Source: a virus (taxonomy: Duplodnaviria; Heunggongvirae; Uroviricota; Caudoviricetes). Taken from it: a DNA stretch of 12,426 nucleotides. The translations under genes and the position numbers were made by a program. The stretch lies in IMG/VR virus record IMGVR_UViG_2690316131_000019. One strand, written 5' to 3'. Positions 1,902 through 9,227 of this stretch are shown piece after piece (position 1 is the first letter of the stretch; every line of letters begins with the position of its first letter). Below the pieces are notes generated by a model. It searched no databases and was not told the origin of the DNA. It worked only from the letters and a program-made list of their open reading frames with translations.

Positions 1902-2519
1902 TTAGCATGATTCAGGGGAAACCCCAATATTAAATATGAGTGTCTCCCCTGAATCAGCATAATAATGTAATATTATTGACTTACGTTGTTTTCTTGCTTC
2001 GTAGAATAAACGCTCTTGCGGCGATAATTTGTGAAAACTGCCGGATGCACAATATATGTTTTTTAACTTTTCGCGGGTTTCTTTTATTGTATCTTCTGAT
2101 ATGTATTTTAGGTATTTATCCGTATAGATGTTGCTACTATAAGAAATTAATGTTTTGCTGTTGTTGTGATGTATTGTATTTTTATCGTTGAAGTCTGTAT
2201 TTTTATTTACTGTCATTAGGTTTTTAATGATTACATGTAATACAATAGTCTCCCCATCATCAATTCCATATTTGATGTCATAGTCAGTATATTTATTTGT
2301 TATACCGTTTCCTGATAGCGGCACTATGTACTCTGAGAAAAATGAGTTTGCCGCGTGACTATCAAGAGCAATAGCAGTTTGTTTGTGGTAAAAATAAAAC
2401 AATATTGAGAGAGTCAAAATAATAGCGACGCCTAATGCAACCTTTAATATAGATATGGTTTTCAAAATATCGCTCCTTGTTGTAACATACATCAGTAATG
2501 TGGCGTTTTTCAATTGCAT
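1902..2519 (-). CDS. AT-rich membrane-anchored protein of unknown function, possible superinfection-exclusion-type moron
   Basis: 205-codon ORF at about 30% GC, much lower than flanking late genes. Strongly hydrophobic N-terminal segment (ILKTISILKVALGVAIILTLSILFYFY) followed by a polar Asn/Lys/Tyr-rich domain. Lies between the ejection gene and the mnt-like gene, where P22 carries sieA. No convincing Shine-Dalgarno at either candidate start (2519 or 2492), so the start is uncertain. Confidence 0.4.
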   Translation of the reverse strand: MQLKNATLLMYVTTRSDILKTISILKVALGVAIILTLSILFYFYHKQTAIALDSHAANSFFSEYIVPLSGNGITNKYTDYDIKYGIDDGETIVLHVIIKNLMTVNKNTDFNDKNTIHHNNSKTLISYSSNIYTDKYLKYISEDTIKETREKLKNIYCASGSFHKLSPQERLFYEARKQRKSIILHYYADSGETLIFNIGVSPESC

Positions 2520-3347: not shown

Positions 3348-4286
3348 ATGACGAGTATAGCAACAGCAGTATCTACTATCAACGTGCCATTCCACGGCGC
3401 AGAGCTTTATGTTGTCAATCACAACGGCGAACCGTATACCCCAATGAAACCTATCGTTGAGGGAATGGGGCTAGACTGGAAATCTCAACATAAGAAGATT
3501 TCTCAACGCTTCTCGAAGGGTATGGTGGAAATCACCATACCTTCTGCCGGTGGGGGGCAAGCCATGATTTGTATGGCTTTACGAAAATTGGCAGCTTGGT
3601 TGAACAGCATCAGCCCTAACAAAGTCCGCCCTGAAATCCGCGACAAGGTAATCCAGTATCAGGAAGAGTGTGACGATGTGCTCTACGAGTACTGGACTAA
3701 AGGCCATGTGGTTAACCCACGCAAAGCTAAAAAGGCGTTGCCGGGTAAAATAACAACTGAACAGCAGGAAGCCATTAAACAACTCGTCATGAGTCGCGGT
3801 CAGTCTCTGCCAAAAGAAAAACAGGCTAAGGCGATGATCACCATGTGGTCGTCACTGAAATCTCATTTTGGCTGTTCGTACAAAGAAATTGGTGAAGATC
3901 AATTTGCCGAAGCGTTGTCTCTTGTTGCTCGGGTTCCGCTTGAAGGGGAGTATCTCCCTGCTGGATCTGCATCAGAGAATGATGAAGTGGCAGTCAAGAT
4001 GTTAGATGCGCTTCGTGAGGCAATTAAAACACAGACAAAATGTTATGGTTATCCATTGAAGCCAGGCTACCGCAGTCTGATTCATTCGCCGTCGGGTGTT
4101 CTCGGCCTGACGGAGAACTCACTGCTGATGAATCTGCTGAACCAGTTACAGGAAGACGGGCACGACGTATCGGGCGCGGCGGCGGAGCTGACCACCATGT
4201 TCTGCTACATCGTCGGTGTGAGCAAATGCCTGCGTGATATCCAGACGCACGCGGAGTACATCAACGACAAGGCTGGGTTCTTCTGA
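3348..4286 (+). CDS. ant: Phage antirepressor (P22 Ant-like: N-terminal Ant domain plus conserved C-terminal module)
   Basis: 312-codon ORF with AGGAA SD 8 nt upstream of the ATG. N-terminus (SIATAVSTINVPFHGAELYVVNHNGEPYTPMKPIVEGMGLDW) resembles P22 Ant-type antirepressor N-domains. Lies downstream of arc as in P22. The C-terminal ~78 aa are nearly identical to the C-terminus of the 5460..6170 product. Confidence 0.7.
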   Translation: MTSIATAVSTINVPFHGAELYVVNHNGEPYTPMKPIVEGMGLDWKSQHKKISQRFSKGMVEITIPSAGGGQAMICMALRKLAAWLNSISPNKVRPEIRDKVIQYQEECDDVLYEYWTKGHVVNPRKAKKALPGKITTEQQEAIKQLVMSRGQSLPKEKQAKAMITMWSSLKSHFGCSYKEIGEDQFAEALSLVARVPLEGEYLPAGSASENDEVAVKMLDALREAIKTQTKCYGYPLKPGYRSLIHSPSGVLGLTENSLLMNLLNQLQEDGHDVSGAAAELTTMFCYIVGVSKCLRDIQTHAEYINDKAGFF

Positions 4287-4304
4287 CGGGCGGCGGCACA
4301 GGGA
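4050..4304. repeat. Left arm of a ~255-bp inverted repeat (3' end of ant plus 18 bp past its stop)
   Basis: The reverse complement of 5444..5698 matches 4050..4304 with only a few mismatches by manual alignment, including the stop codon and the downstream TGACGGGCGGCGGCACAG. Confidence 0.85.
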
Positions 4305-4335
4305 CGTGCAAAACGAAACTAGCGTGACATGTCAC

Positions 4336-4360
4336 AGGCCGCTTTCGCGGCCTTGTTTTT
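4336..4360 (+). terminator. Rho-independent terminator downstream of ant
   Basis: Stem AGGCCGC (4336-4342), loop TTTC, stem GCGGCCT (4347-4353), then TGTTTTT. Immediately preceded by a perfect 12-bp palindrome GTGACATGTCAC (4324-4335). Confidence 0.6.
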
Positions 4361-4520
4361 AACGAATGCCACCGCCGCCTGGGCGGGAATCCGCAGAACG
4401 CCCACCGCAGCGTGAGCCGTCAGCAGCAGTGTCGCTGTCGTGCTGACAACGACCGGCAAAGGCCTGAGTTGAAGCTACCAGAGACAACAAAACGAACAGT
4501 GCAGCAAATGCTTTTTTCAT
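4359..4520 (-). CDS. Small predicted secreted peptide (53 aa precursor, about 31 aa mature, two Cys)
   Basis: ATG at 4520 gives MKKAFAALFVLLSLVASTQAFA-GRCQHDSDTAADGSRCGGRSADSRPGGGGIR, with a classical signal peptide and AXA cleavage site. SD is weak (GGAA) and the mature part is GC-rich and low-complexity, so coding status is uncertain. The ORF track's 88-aa version starts at 4625 with no SD. Confidence 0.3.
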   Translation of the reverse strand: MKKAFAALFVLLSLVASTQAFAGRCQHDSDTAADGSRCGGRSADSRPGGGGIR

Positions 4521-4612
4521 TGTGAAATTTCCATCTATAAGCCACCTCAATGTGGCGTCAATGAGTGTAGCACTGACTTTTGTTTCGTCCACAAAAAAGC
4601 CTGCGCTGCGGA

Positions 4613-5158
4613 CTATTCCTTCCATTTATCAGAAAAAAGATCTTCTTCTAAAGGCATTGGTTCTGTTTTTGTTTTCTCAAAGAATTGATAACTGATAGTG
4701 ATTGCTTCCTCTTTAAACTCTTCTTGCTCAGTTATGTTGTGAGCATCTGCGTCAACAAAAAACATAACCAGCGCATCACGATTGTGATTTACCGAATAAA
4801 CTAAAAAGCAATCACTTGTTGGTATGCATTTTACTTGTACAGACGCTATATTTTTCCATGCATCCCAAGATGATTTTTTACCAGTGTGTTTTTTATCACT
4901 ATCTTCTGGAATATAGTCTTGGTTATCGACATGAGTATGCCTGACATTTAGTTTAAGCATTTCTGTCGGACGAGCAAATGCAGCATCTTTACCAAGAGAT
5001 GGATGATATCCCGTTTTCCAATACTGGGCAAAGGCATCAGATACTTTCTTCAGCTCAAGATCAGATGCACAAAGGGCCGAGAAATTTTGCGTATGCAATA
5101 CTCGACCCTTATATCTGACAATTTGATTTTTATCATTCTGCGACGCAGACGAACTCAT
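4613..5158 (-). CDS. YafO-like toxin-domain protein (candidate ribosome-dependent mRNA interferase / abortive-infection effector)
   Basis: 181-codon ORF starting at the ATG at 5158 with AAGGAAA SD. The central region (GKDAAFARPTEMLKLNVRHTHV ... TSDCFLVYSVNHNRDALVMFFV) resembles the recalled conserved YafO blocks (GRDALYDDSF..FERVAHIHL ... DEAHLVYCQ..AWLLIAIL). AT-rich relative to the flanking repeats. Assignment is from memory, not a search. Confidence 0.4.
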   Translation of the reverse strand: MSSSASQNDKNQIVRYKGRVLHTQNFSALCASDLELKKVSDAFAQYWKTGYHPSLGKDAAFARPTEMLKLNVRHTHVDNQDYIPEDSDKKHTGKKSSWDAWKNIASVQVKCIPTSDCFLVYSVNHNRDALVMFFVDADAHNITEQEEFKEEAITISYQFFEKTKTEPMPLEEDLFSDKWKE

Positions 5159-5312
5159 AATTTTCCTTATTGTTACGAGAATCAAAGAAAGCGCGGGATA
5201 CGCGACTTGCGTGATCTTTTGTCATAGTAACTTTTACGTACTCTACGCTTCCATTGAAAGAACGTCTTGCGGCAGCTTGCGCTCTACGCATCTGCAATTT
5301 TTCGTTTCGCAT
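5133..5312 (-). CDS. Small basic ORF (59 aa) overlapping the start of the YafO-like gene; possible cognate partner or regulator
   Basis: ATG at 5312 is preceded by GAGGT with 6-nt spacing. Hand translation gives MRNEKLQMRRAQAAARRSFNGSVEYVKVTMTKDHASRVSRAFFDSRNNKENYEFVCVAE, ending 26 nt inside the downstream gene. It falls just below the 60-aa cutoff of the ORF track. No recognised family. Confidence 0.2.
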   Translation of the reverse strand: MRNEKLQMRRAQAAARRSFNGSVEYVKVTMTKDHASRVSRAFFDSRNNKENYEFVCVAE

Positions 5313-5443
5313 GACATTACCTCATATCTCATAAGTTCATTACACGGATTAATAAAAATGAAACCAATCCGTTTACCCTTGAGGTAATAGTACGCTATTC
5401 ACCCACAGTCTGCAATCTGTACAGAATTATTTAAAGGCACATC

Positions 5444-5698
5444 TCTGTGCCGCCGCCCGTCAGAAGAATCCTGCTTTGTCGTTGATGTACTCCGCGTGCG
5501 TCTGGATATCACGCAGGCATTTGCTCACACCGACGATGTAGCAGAACATGGTGGTCAGTTCCGCCGCCGCGCCCGATACGTCGTGCCCGTCGTCCTGTAA
5601 CTGGTTCAGCAGATTCATCAGCAGTGAGTTCTCCGTCAGGCCGAGAACACCAGACGGCGAGTGAATCAGGCTGCGGTAGCCGGGCTTCAGTGGGGCAC
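5444..5698. repeat. Right arm of the ~255-bp inverted repeat (3' end of the Bro-N antirepressor gene plus 16-18 bp past its stop)
   Basis: Reverse complement aligns with 4050..4304 at roughly 95% or better identity by eye. Confidence 0.85.
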
Positions 5699-6170
5699 TG
5701 TAGGTTTTGTTCTCTATCTTCATTGCCTGTATTACTGCTGACGCCGTGGCGTTGGCTACCTGGTCGGCAACCATCTTTATGCGTTCTTCCTGCGGGAGCG
5801 AGTTTTTAATGTAACTTCCGGTGCGGCGGATCTGAGGAAGAACCTCACCTGTAACCCATTTACGAAAGCGGTAGGGGATAGTGCCTGGTGTCACCGCATC
5901 GCGGCAGCGGAGGATCAGTGTGTAGAGGCCTGACTCGGAGATGATGTTGATCTCTTTTACTCGGCTGTCAAAAATTGCACGATGTTCATGCCCTATGTTG
6001 AACATAGACCTTTCATCATCATCCAGTTTTTCAAGTGATTGGGTGACGTTTTGGATACGCAGCGCACTACAAACGTCTTGGGCTACAAACCATGGTTGGC
6101 CATCGATAATGATGGAACGGATAGGGTTAACAGATTCAAATTTGAAGATGGCAGTTTGAGCATTAGCCAT
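5460..6170 (-). CDS. Antirepressor with Bro-N-type N-terminal domain and the shared Ant C-terminal module
   Basis: 236-codon ORF from the ATG at 6170, with GGAG 9 nt upstream; the ORF track extends to a GTG at 6185. N-terminus FKFESVNPIRSIIIDGQPWFVAQDVCSALRIQNVTQSLEKLDDDER is a typical Bro-N / phage antirepressor N-domain. The C-terminal 78 aa match the ant C-terminus. Confidence 0.7.
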   Translation of the reverse strand: MANAQTAIFKFESVNPIRSIIIDGQPWFVAQDVCSALRIQNVTQSLEKLDDDERSMFNIGHEHRAIFDSRVKEINIISESGLYTLILRCRDAVTPGTIPYRFRKWVTGEVLPQIRRTGSYIKNSLPQEERIKMVADQVANATASAVIQAMKIENKTYSAPLKPGYRSLIHSPSGVLGLTENSLLMNLLNQLQDDGHDVSGAAAELTTMFCYIVGVSKCLRDIQTHAEYINDKAGFF

Positions 6171-6321
6171 GGTGGTTATCTCCACTTAGTGATTTTAATC
6201 ACCACCGCAACGCCAATTACTGGTGGTGAACTGGACAAGGTTGGCGTACCGGCCTAAGTGGTACCGGCGTCCTTTCGGACCCCTGCCCAGCCCACCATAA
6301 TTCGGATATGGCTGTGCTTAA

Positions 6322-6485: not shown

Positions 6486-6743
6486 TTATCTGGTTTGTTT
6501 TCGTAATTGTTCGGCACAATAGTCGAGATGTGTTTGCAGATCCTGCATAGACATCTGTGAGCTGGTGACGTAGTTAATCAGTGCAGTCAGTTCGGCAAGT
6601 GGGCCATCGACATTAAATCCATCCTTATCGAGATCCCGGAGTAATTTCATCAAGAGCGATCCCTCCACCAGTGATCTGACGCCTCCCGGCGTGTGAATCC
6701 TTTCGGTAAATCCGTCTTCCAGTGGATAGTGATACTGCTGCAT
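6486..6743 (-). CDS. Small stand-alone antirepressor-like protein (85 aa), a free copy of the Ant C-terminal module
   Basis: ATG at 6743 with GGAGAAG SD. The product (..HTPGGVRSLVEGSLLMKLLRDLDKDGFNVDGPLAELTALINYVTSSQMSMQDLQTHLDY..) aligns with the shared C-terminal module of the two larger antirepressors (HSPSGVLGLTENSLLMNLLNQLQEDGHDVSGAAAELTTMFCYIVGVSKCLRDIQTHAEY) at roughly 40-45% identity by eye. Confidence 0.55.
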   Translation of the reverse strand: MQQYHYPLEDGFTERIHTPGGVRSLVEGSLLMKLLRDLDKDGFNVDGPLAELTALINYVTSSQMSMQDLQTHLDYCAEQLRKQTR

Positions 6744-6762
6744 CTTATCTTCTCCATGCAAT

Positions 6763-6938: not shown

Positions 6939-9227
6939 ATGACGGTCTCAACCGAAGTTGACCACAACGAATACACAGGTAACGGTGTTACGACATCATT
7001 TCCGTATACCTTCAGGATTTTCCAGAAATCTGATCTGGTAGTACAAGTGGTTGACCTTGATGAAAATATCACTGTTCTTGCTCTTGATACTGATTACACA
7101 GTTACCGGGGCGGGAGGATATAACGGTGGTAATGTAATTCTGTCGAAGGTGTTGGCTAACGGTTATCTGATTTCTATATATCGAGAGCTACCGGTTACGC
7201 AGGAAACTGATTTGCGTAATCAGGGTAAGTTCTTTGCAGAAGTGCATGAGAACGCTTTTGATAAGCTAACGATGCTGATCCAGCAGGTTCGAAATTGGTT
7301 CAGTCTGGCGCTACGAAAGCCGTCGTTCGTGGCTAATTATTACGACGCGATGAATAACTATATTCGTAATCTTCGTGACCCATCTAGGCCGCAAGATGCA
7401 GCAACGAAAAATTATGTTGACGGGCTTGCAGAAACAAACCTGAGCAGAACGCTACGAACTCCCGAACCGATATCAACTTTGCCCGGCGTTGAGCAACGTA
7501 AGAATAAGATTGTTGCAATGGATGATTCAGGGAACCCACTCATGGTTCTCCCGGAATCAGGTTCTGCATCTGATGTTATGATCGAGTTAGCAAAGCCAAC
7601 AGGGGCTAGTTTGATTAATACTAAAGATGGAGAAAATCTACAACTTAAAATTAATAAAATACCTCCCCTTTATGCTGAGGAGTTTGGTGATCTTACTGGA
7701 TTTGATGTTACTGACATATTTCAACATGCTATTGATACTGCATCTGCTCAATGCCGTGAATTAAGAGTAAGGACGCAAATTATAAATGTTAGGCAACTCA
7801 AACTCCCTAACAATACTATTTTAAATCTAGGCGTTTGTACTTTAAGGCAAATATCTAATACAAATAAGCCATTAATCAGGAATGATGTATTTGGATATGC
7901 GGATAAAGTTCATACAAACTTAAATATTACCATTATTGATGGGATTCTTGATTTTAATGGTTCAAACCAGTCTGACACTACGGCAACAGGAGAAGTTAAT
8001 GTCGGCTGTGCATTTTTTGGGGTGAAAGGCCTTCATTTTCGTGGCTCAACAAAATTCATTAATGCCAGACGTTATAGTTTTTTTGCTGCAAATTGTGCAA
8101 ACATTACTTTTGATGATCCGGTTGTTGAAAACGACCCGGAAATACCAAGTAGTAATAAAGATGGCTTACATTTTTGCGGAAAAATTTACGGTATTTCAAT
8201 AAAAAGTATTTATGTTTATAACCCAGAAGATGATGCACTAGCTATAAATGCTGATGATGTAGATCATGGTGGGGAATGGACTCGCGCTAACATTACTGGA
8301 GCAATAGATAATGTTTGGGTTGGGCAAGTTCGTGTGGATGGTCCTTCATCGCATAACGGTGTGCGTTTGCTAAGTGCGTCCCCCAACACCCCTATTTCAA
8401 ATGTGAAAATTGATTCAATTGTAGGTAAAGTAGATAATTATTTTCTTAATATTCAACCATACGGTTTAGGTACTTCATCGGTATACCACAATATTGATAT
8501 CGGAATTATAGGAGGAATATATTCTGTCAGAACCAATCCTGCATTTACTCATGGCATGGTAAATATCTACACTATGAAGCCGAACCCAGCAGTTTTGAAT
8601 AATATTCATATTGGTCAGATTTTTCGTGATCAGGAAATTGGCGATGGACAGGATCGTCCGACTGTACAGTTATGTGTTGAAAACACTTCTGTTACATTTG
8701 ATAAAATTGTCGAGCAGAATTGTGCTAATGATGCTGTCGTTAGGGTAACGGAGATAGGACCTTCGGCTTTTATAACTCTAAACGAAGCATACAAAAAATC
8801 CACCCGAACCTTAACTCCTGGTGTGTATGGTTCCATCGTAATTGTAAGTAATGTTAACGACAATCAACTTGAACACCTTAAAATTGGATTCAATTCTGCA
8901 GATAGACTACGTCACGTTGTATTGGCAAGGTCTGTAAAAATTAAACGTTTAGATATGTTTAGTGATGGTTCAGCAGACAATATCCCTCTGTATCTTGAAT
9001 CATCCCAGGTAACTAATCTGAATTGGAATAGTAGTGTTACATCCACTTATCAATTTACTGCACACCGCTATACGCTTTCAGGTGAATCGTCTGCTGTAAT
9101 ATTTGAACGCCCTGCTGTTACAGGTGGGAGTACTGCAGAACGTCCAGTAAATGCAATAATTGGTGACAGTTTCTATGATACAACAACGAATACTCGTGTG
9201 AACTGGAATGGTAGTGCTTGGGTTTAA
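6939..9227 (+). CDS. Tailspike / tail fibre protein with conserved N-terminal particle-binding domain and C-terminal beta-helix receptor-binding (probable polysaccharide depolymerase) domain
   Basis: 762-codon ORF with GGAG SD. The N-terminal ~150 aa (EYTGNGVTTSFPYTFRIFQKSDLVVQVVD...DTDYTV) fit the T7 gp17 / epsilon15-type tailspike anchor pattern as recalled. The downstream part is AT-rich with repetitive N/G/I/V-rich segments typical of a right-handed beta-helix. Confidence 0.8.
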   Translation: MTVSTEVDHNEYTGNGVTTSFPYTFRIFQKSDLVVQVVDLDENITVLALDTDYTVTGAGGYNGGNVILSKVLANGYLISIYRELPVTQETDLRNQGKFFAEVHENAFDKLTMLIQQVRNWFSLALRKPSFVANYYDAMNNYIRNLRDPSRPQDAATKNYVDGLAETNLSRTLRTPEPISTLPGVEQRKNKIVAMDDSGNPLMVLPESGSASDVMIELAKPTGASLINTKDGENLQLKINKIPPLYAEEFGDLTGFDVTDIFQHAIDTASAQCRELRVRTQIINVRQLKLPNNTILNLGVCTLRQISNTNKPLIRNDVFGYADKVHTNLNITIIDGILDFNGSNQSDTTATGEVNVGCAFFGVKGLHFRGSTKFINARRYSFFAANCANITFDDPVVENDPEIPSSNKDGLHFCGKIYGISIKSIYVYNPEDDALAINADDVDHGGEWTRANITGAIDNVWVGQVRVDGPSSHNGVRLLSASPNTPISNVKIDSIVGKVDNYFLNIQPYGLGTSSVYHNIDIGIIGGIYSVRTNPAFTHGMVNIYTMKPNPAVLNNIHIGQIFRDQEIGDGQDRPTVQLCVENTSVTFDKIVEQNCANDAVVRVTEIGPSAFITLNEAYKKSTRTLTPGVYGSIVIVSNVNDNQLEHLKIGFNSADRLRHVVLARSVKIKRLDMFSDGSADNIPLYLESSQVTNLNWNSSVTSTYQFTAHRYTLSGESSAVIFERPAVTGGSTAERPVNAIIGDSFYDTTTNTRVNWNGSAWV

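Follow-up and report, generated by a model that had tools for sequence, protein, structure and literature searches.

What is a YafO-like protein doing in the cargo region of a prophage when none of the antitoxins of the RelB, DinJ or YafN type stands beside it? The question is raised by two overlapping genes in a 12,426-nucleotide stretch of Caudoviricetes DNA (IMG/VR record IMGVR_UViG_2690316131_000019), referred to at its full length as the window, whose source is a Uetakevirus-like (epsilon15/phiV10-type) Escherichia coli prophage. A preliminary description of the sequence had proposed a candidate toxin or abortive-infection module here, made up of an extended YafO-like protein and a small basic open reading frame (ORF). 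Profile match, conserved residues and fold class all identify the effector as a genuine member of the YafO family with the RelE/HigB (BECR) fold, and we consider it rather probable that the segment from about 5415 to 4613 on the minus strand is an autonomous, mobile and autoregulated two-gene operon resembling type II toxin-antitoxin (TA) systems, carried as prophage cargo and plausibly serving in phage exclusion. The two genes are:

4613..5158, minus strand: long-form YafO-family toxin gene, 181 amino acids (aa); ATG at 5158-5156, Shine-Dalgarno (SD) sequence AAGGA at 5168-5164
5133..5312, minus strand: gene for the 59-aa basic partner, candidate antitoxin and/or repressor; isoelectric point (pI) 10.0; PHROG 6685 (function unknown)

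The 181-aa product (an alternative 190-aa form of the ORF begins at an unconserved TTG) matches the Pfam YafO_toxin profile PF13957 over residues 46-152 with 26.1-26.3 bits against a gathering score of 25 (E about 8e-6 to 9e-6), so that the likeness of its central region to YafO, noted at first reading, was found again at 26.1 bits by the hidden Markov model search that had been suggested as a check. All of the close relatives (24 of 24; Enterobacterales, 46-98% identity) match PF13957 at E<=0.01. An exhaustive search of 1.84 billion representatives with a profile built from close relatives recovered only 70 clusters at E<=1e-3, which grade from long forms of 160-200 aa to canonical YafOs of 131-135 aa, and the latter (E 5e-6 to 9e-4) align over their full length to residues 19-159 of the window protein. 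In an alignment of 53 sequences that includes K-12 YafO, F43, G56, H76, Y121 and H140 are invariant and D58, P64 and S115 nearly so; the window toxin retains all of the family-invariant residues. Structure prediction, also called for at the outset, yielded an AlphaFold2 (AF2) model with a predicted local distance difference test score (pLDDT) of 91.2 and a predicted template modelling score of 0.86, which supports the RelE/HigB fold class and places the protein in the RelE/ParE superfamily (BECR fold); an earlier AF2 model from 24 close sequences (pLDDT 57) was set aside. The lack of any match by profile or structure, named at the outset as grounds for refutation, is thus not what we see. A PDB sequence search with the toxin gave no match, no solved YafO structure turned up there, and a search of NCBIfam found no specific model for it. 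The gene is under strong purifying selection, with a ratio of nonsynonymous to synonymous substitution rates (dN/dS) of 0.07-0.13. One of the viral copies, L048 (3974-4339), has the toxin ORF cut to 121 aa beside an intact partner gene, by either decay or assembly error; the other 42 are full length.

Relative to canonical YafO the protein carries three additions: a leader of about 17 aa, modelled with low confidence; an insertion of about 30-40 aa between beta3 and beta4 (about residues 78-117) with conserved W98 and W101; and, after the last helix, a conserved acidic tail of about 20 aa (MPLEEDLFSDKWKE) with the motif MPLxEDLFSDKW. The extra 50 or so N-terminal and 40 or so C-terminal residues reported at first reading turn out to be an artefact of the partial Pfam envelope (46-152), given that canonical YafOs align to 19-159. 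The pattern F-x-x-K/x-W within the tail is kept in nearly all long forms, is confidently modelled and is not found in canonical YafOs, and insertion and tail are conserved across about 59 long-form sequences in an alignment of 78. Since these two elements are conserved, and since the protein at 181 aa is not the compact single-domain toxin of about 130 aa, we assign it to a distinct long-form subfamily, whose median pI is 6.0 versus 7.9 for the short forms. In all, some 75 residues of the window protein (leader, insertion and tail) lie outside the core shared with RelE-superfamily structures.

The upstream ORF had been described as basic, provided with a good SD sequence and overlapping the toxin start by 26 nt, and all of this is borne out: its SD is GAGG, 7 nt ahead of the ATG, and the overlap in the window is 26 nt. 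The partner lies upstream of the toxin in 43 of 43 viral (IMG/VR) loci, with an overlap of 17-26 nt in each, and is also present in L003-L007; measured against diverged copies it has a dN/dS of 0.20-0.30, and its C-terminus, NYEFVC, is strictly conserved. The 59-aa ORF is a real gene, which the PGAP annotation at times does not call. Searches of Pfam (singly and as 19 sequences), NCBIfam, PADLOC and, by profile, the PDB returned only sub-threshold noise and no family, and among its matches in a collection of 5.8 billion proteins the sole name is 'hypothetical protein'. The partner, flagged from the beginning as atypical, is conserved, under selection, strictly co-occurring with the toxin and without a match to any known family. 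Among the small proteins next to the toxin, Pfam and NCBIfam searches recognise none as RelB, DinJ or Phd, in line with the first impression that no RelB/DinJ/YafN-type antitoxin is present. It had been suggested that the module could be an uncharacterised system; this holds for the partner, a 'hypothetical protein' throughout, and fails for the toxin, already named 'type II toxin-antitoxin system YafO family toxin' by PGAP/RefSeq. What is new here is the consistently linked partner family and the definition of the long-form additions; the annotation of the toxin was known.

Two further observations concern the partner gene. Synonymous divergence over the same locus pairs is dS 0.37-0.90 for this gene and 1.4-2.7 for the toxin gene, a 2-5-fold reduction, which suggests either extra constraint at the nucleotide level or a mosaic history. 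A short ORF in an alternative frame (MRYEVMSCETKNCRC...) begins ahead of the partner start, overlaps it and was rejected as a gene, its conservation being due to the SD and start region.

The limits of the module emerge when the window is compared by sliding identity with six diverged loci: homology is confined to the stretch between about 5400, just 5' of the partner gene, and about 4620, at the toxin stop; the flanks of L036 and L047 are at random-level identity to the window. The homology block thus runs from the promoter through the toxin stop, and upstream of the partner gene we distinguish three elements:

5387..5415, minus strand: putative sigma-70 promoter; -35 TTGCAG (5415-5410), 17-nt spacer, -10 TACTAT (5392-5387)
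5373..5387, minus strand: palindrome TTACC-TCAAG-GGTAA, putative operator, abutting the -10-like hexamer and inside the homology block
5425..5451, minus strand: terminator-like hairpin GGCACA-GAGA-TGTGCC followed by T-rich TTTAAATAATT, after the upstream Bro-N gene

The promoter was read by eye from the sequence and its alignment, in which most homologues have TAATAT as the -10 hexamer. Within poorly conserved intergenic sequence, the arms of the palindrome (TTACC/GGTAA) are the same in 9 of 10 diverged loci, around a spacer that reads TCAAG, TTTTT, CCAAA or TTACG depending on the locus; constant arms with a variable spacer are the usual signature of an operator, and we treat the palindrome as a putative one. 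Loci L050 and L052 have partners different from that of the window cassette, and different palindromes. The stem of the hairpin shows compensatory changes across loci (GGCACA/TGTGCC versus GGCGCA/TGCGCC), and this hairpin would set the cassette apart as a transcription unit of its own. We make no claim for a leader hairpin at 5316-5388 (minus strand), in which AUUACCUCA, overlapping the putative operator, would pair with UGAGGUAAU, the partner SD, and enclose an inner hairpin: its minimum free energy is -19.6 kcal/mol with a z-score of only -1.6, one pair is broken in L037 and its conservation is ambiguous. An Rfam search of 4200-5600 at E<=1 returned no RNA family and so lends no support to a known type I or type III RNA antitoxin. 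The two small genes are adjacent, co-oriented, overlapping and co-inherited as a unit, as expected in general of a type II TA system, and their overlap suggests translational coupling. The cassette, of about 800 bp, reads as a compact, self-contained and mobile unit with its own control region.

More distant long forms (20-46% toxin identity) repeat the arrangement. Each locus examined has an upstream ORF of 52-71 aa, placed anywhere from an 8-nt overlap to a 15-nt gap, and the pair of long-form toxin and upstream ORF occurs in about ten unrelated contexts, some of them chromosomal. Among the loci with a small ORF upstream of the toxin are:

L003 and L006: long-form toxin in siphophage tail modules
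L051: long-form toxin on a short contig
L054: long-form toxin beside a cI-type repressor and AlpA
L056: long-form toxin in a P2-like phage, between the portal gene and gpA
L058: long-form toxin beside a T5orf172/ResIII gene
L059 and L060: long-form toxin beside an N6_Mtase+Methylase_S gene
L061: YafO form of intermediate length, 152 aa

The gpA-portal region of P2, in which the L056 homologue sits exactly, is a defence hotspot (PMC9122126), and L058, L059 and L060 adjoin restriction-modification (R-M) or helicase genes. Of twelve directly upstream partners tabulated, eleven have a pI of 9.1-11.4, and that of L058 is acidic (pI 4.7). A loose pattern is common to the partners: a basic helix R-x-x-A-A-x-R/Y-x4-G, followed by V-x-V/M-T/S-K-x-x-A/S-R-x-S and a hydrophobic C-terminus.

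Two variants of the arrangement were seen. Loci L052 (2648-3603) and L053 (2642-3603), which occupy another tailspike-adjacent phage slot, have three genes in the order basic protein of 62-64 aa, acidic protein of 65 aa (pI 4.05) and long-form YafO of 200 aa, with a palindrome TTAACC-N5-GGTTAA upstream. In the metagenomic loci L064 (915-1480) and L065 (1813-2405), canonical YafOs of 132-134 aa are preceded by ORFs of 55-65 aa without a Pfam match; these are not of the YafN/Phd type, and the partner diversity of PF13957 is therefore wider than the K-12 paradigm.

The setting of the cassette is that of prophage cargo, as had been supposed. Over positions 4300-5460 the window matches Escherichia phage TL-2011b (gp43-46) at 98.7% identity, and its identity to chromosomal prophages reaches 99.6%; one end of the prophage adjoins yfgI/yfgH. 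The accessory region, which also holds Arc-like repressors and two antirepressor-like genes, is bounded by two genes:

1-1890: ejection-protein gene, on one side of the accessory region
6939-9227: tailspike gene, on the other side

Within this region the slot varies among Uetakevirus-like prophages: the cassette is carried by 60 of the 533 E. coli genomes with matching flanks, phiV10 and phiv142-3 are without it, and in phiv142-3 other ORFs fill the slot. Residence in variable cargo slots or defence islands is expected of anti-phage defence systems in general; the variable slot here, and the P2-hotspot and R-M or helicase neighbourhoods of distant homologues, are circumstantial evidence for such a role.

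The toxicity, neutralisation and defence roles of the cassette are ones that we infer from sequence, and the model that follows is worded accordingly. YafO is reported to cleave mRNA and arrest translation (PMC7781912); whether it depends on the ribosome to do so is contested (bioRxiv 10.1101/2021.07.08.451724). By homology, the window toxin would cleave mRNA and bring about translation arrest, perhaps while associated with the ribosome, as has been described for YafO. The 59-aa partner is probably both antidote and regulator: it would bind and neutralise the toxin and, either by itself or complexed with it, act on the promoter-overlapping TTACC-N5-GGTAA palindrome to repress the operon. A lysogen would keep the pair in balance. 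From its context, one may suppose that an infecting phage or loss of the prophage would upset this balance, through turnover of the partner or a shut-off of transcription, and the freed RNase would then stop growth, with abortive infection or superinfection exclusion, or else prophage addiction, as the outcome.

The system closest to the cassette is YafN-YafO of E. coli K-12 (PF13957), with which it shares the toxin family, by profile, invariant residues and fold class, the expected action through mRNA cleavage and translation arrest (PMC7781912), and a small partner gene upstream of the toxin, the order in YafN-YafO being antitoxin then toxin (PMC11980606 Table 1). The differences lie in the toxin, which has 181 aa with leader, Trp insertion and tail where K-12 YafO has 132; in the partner, a basic 59-aa orphan as against the acidic, 97-aa, Phd/YefM-type YafN; and in control, the window cassette being phage-borne with its own palindromic putative operator whereas the K-12 pair belongs to the SOS-regulated dinB operon. 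Because a YafN-type antitoxin is absent, the window toxin falls outside the YafN-YafO system. With HigB/HigB2 and other ribosome-dependent mRNases of the RelE superfamily (5mje, 7nbu, 6af3, 2a6q and 4q2u) sequence identity is 4-17%, and HigB systems differ in having the reverse gene order and helix-turn-helix antitoxins. The gop-beta-cII system of P4 and the old/tin systems of P2 (PMC9122126) resemble the cassette in their small size and in being cargo of variable temperate-phage slots, a resemblance extended by the distant homologue L056 in the gpA-portal hotspot and by the proposed outcome of abortive infection; these exclusion modules differ in that a PADLOC search finds no sequence relationship to the window cassette, which is known from sequence alone. 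When the literature was searched for YafO together with phage, defence, NetFlax or TL-2011b, the only matches were surveys in which Pseudomonas prophages and tailocin clusters are listed as carrying orphan 'YafO' toxins; none dealt with the cassette.

A number of results weigh against a phage-exclusion operon of the TA type. On the side of the toxin, the Pfam match is marginal, only just over the gathering score; pairwise BLASTP against K-12 YafO is not significant, so that profiles are needed to show the homology; and a Foldseek comparison of the model with the PDB is likewise not significant (E 0.37). For the partner, the Pfam and PDB profile searches recognise no DNA-binding or antitoxin domain. 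The charges are also reversed: an acidic antitoxin and a basic toxin are the usual type II pattern, whereas here the partner is basic (pI 10.0) and the toxin mildly acidic (pI 5.8). A profile comparison of close-clade with distant partners (hhalign; E 1.5e-4 over 50 columns) gives a probability of 51%, moderate support that makes their common ancestry plausible. A strict automatic sigma-70 scan listed no promoter in 5313-5459, because the putative promoter has 8 of 12 consensus positions and the threshold was 9 of 12. Finally, PADLOC-DB v2 has no match for the toxin, the partner or a 53-aa signal-peptide ORF downstream of them, and in L052/L053 an acidic 65-aa protein lies between the basic protein and the toxin, so that regulation may be the sole role of the basic protein in this lineage.

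This last variant leads to the alternative that survives best, although we hold it to be unlikely: the basic partner would be a transcriptional repressor only, like omega in omega-epsilon-zeta, and the toxin would be restrained at the level of transcription only, or else by an unlinked factor or in cis by its own conserved C-terminal tail, a fused segment with an autoinhibitory role (comparable in concept to CapRel). In omega-epsilon-zeta and paaR-paaA-parE the functions of repressor and antitoxin are split between two proteins, and the order of genes in L052/L053 is like theirs, whereas the window cassette has two genes only and its proteins are not homologous to those of either system. The three-gene variant allows for a basic protein that acts chiefly as a repressor, with neutralisation residing, for instance, in the acidic protein or in the toxin tail; the resemblance of KTVRMTDEH in the basic 62-aa protein there to VKVTMTKDH in the window partner, the basic nature of that partner next to a conserved palindrome, and the acidic F-x-x-K-W tail that sets the long forms apart from canonical YafOs all fit such a division of labour. 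What it leaves unaccounted for is the strictly conserved NYEFVC C-terminus, which a role in DNA binding only does not explain; moreover, the two-gene form is by far the commonest, and the family-wide overlap of stop and start suggests that the two are translated together in stoichiometric amounts, as is typical for proteins that bind each other.

A bolder reading, which we put forward as speculation and think quite improbable, is that long-form YafO and its basic partner make up an unrecognised phage-borne family of abortive-infection systems under unusual control. The family-specific Trp insertion and the F-x-x-K-W tail would serve here as a sensor or autoinhibitor, and the basic partner would depart from the classical acidic antitoxin, either neutralising an acidic RNase or anchoring it to nucleic acid or to the ribosome.

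The toxin might instead be an RNase of the phage life cycle, concerned for instance with the turnover of host or phage mRNA, immI/antirepressor control or counter-defence, with the small protein as its chaperone or specificity factor. The position of the cassette inside the Arc/Ant (immI-like) region between the ejection-protein and tailspike genes would suit such an enzyme, as would the siphophage tail modules that house other members and the fact that the toxin is not basic, unlike most ribosome-binding RelE toxins. Most related phages do without the cassette, however, and it must therefore be dispensable for the life cycle; in addition, the unit takes its putative promoter and operator with it when it moves between contexts that are otherwise unrelated, chromosomal R-M sites and the P2 hotspot among them. 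We accordingly give this role little credence and regard it as less likely than a TA-like or defence function.

The TA-like operon that we favour comprises two genes, and the signal-peptide ORF that had been noted as overlapping the toxin stop lies outside it. The overlap holds for the maximal 88-aa ORF (4359-4625) only; the signal peptide starts at the MKK at 4520, which is Met36 of that ORF, and the resulting 53-aa product, the form annotated in RefSeq and TL-2011b (PHROG 14503), begins 92 nt downstream of the toxin stop. Searches of NCBIfam and PADLOC with the signal-peptide ORF gave no match. That this protein is the third component of the system is barely credible: the 88-aa ORF does overlap the toxin stop on the same strand, and no strong terminator was detected between the two genes, but the 53-aa gene occurs in phiV10-like phages without the cassette, homology to diverged cassettes ends at the toxin stop codon, which marks it as a separate gene, and distant cassettes have unrelated genes downstream. 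The 53-aa gene is an independent cargo gene and no part of the toxin system.

The surroundings of the two cargo genes have features of their own. A 292-nt inverted repeat, 91% complementary, lies at 4018-4309 and 5437-5728 and flanks a 1127-nt cargo segment containing the 53-aa gene and the toxin cassette. It consists of the 3' ends of the antirepressor-like genes 3348-4286 (plus strand) and 5460-6185 (minus strand) together with 23 nt past each stop, and its coding part specifies a common C-terminal domain of about 85 aa (PHROG 450/15539); the repeats could act as recombination anchors in cargo exchange or inversion. A third copy of this domain (PHROG 450, E 2e-47) forms a stand-alone 91-aa ORF at 6486-6761 (minus strand). 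At 4336-4353 (plus strand), 3' of the plus-strand antirepressor gene, stands a strong terminator hairpin, AGGCCGC-TTTC-GCGGCCT with a T-run, and the homologous sequence is marked as a terminator in the annotation of phiV10. Between the ejection-protein gene and the Arc/Ant region, a 205-aa ORF at 1902-2519 (minus strand; PHROG 8033, function unknown) has a hydrophobic N-terminal segment, no Pfam match and a weak ThsB/TIR-like match in PADLOC (E 0.005); its position is presumably the one at which P22 has sieA, and it may be another exclusion gene.

As a concept, a cassette of this kind is unsurprising, for antitoxin swaps on RelE-superfamily toxins and TA modules in prophage hotspots are well known. 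Its significance lies with a gene that the databases present as an orphan-looking "YafO family toxin", found in related enterobacterial prophages and in some 1% of complete E. coli genomes. Once toxin and partner are seen as a pair, a candidate new family of antitoxins or regulators is defined, together with a distinct long-form YafO lineage. YafO is among the least understood of the RelE-type toxins, and a phage homologue with a confident model could help in understanding it.

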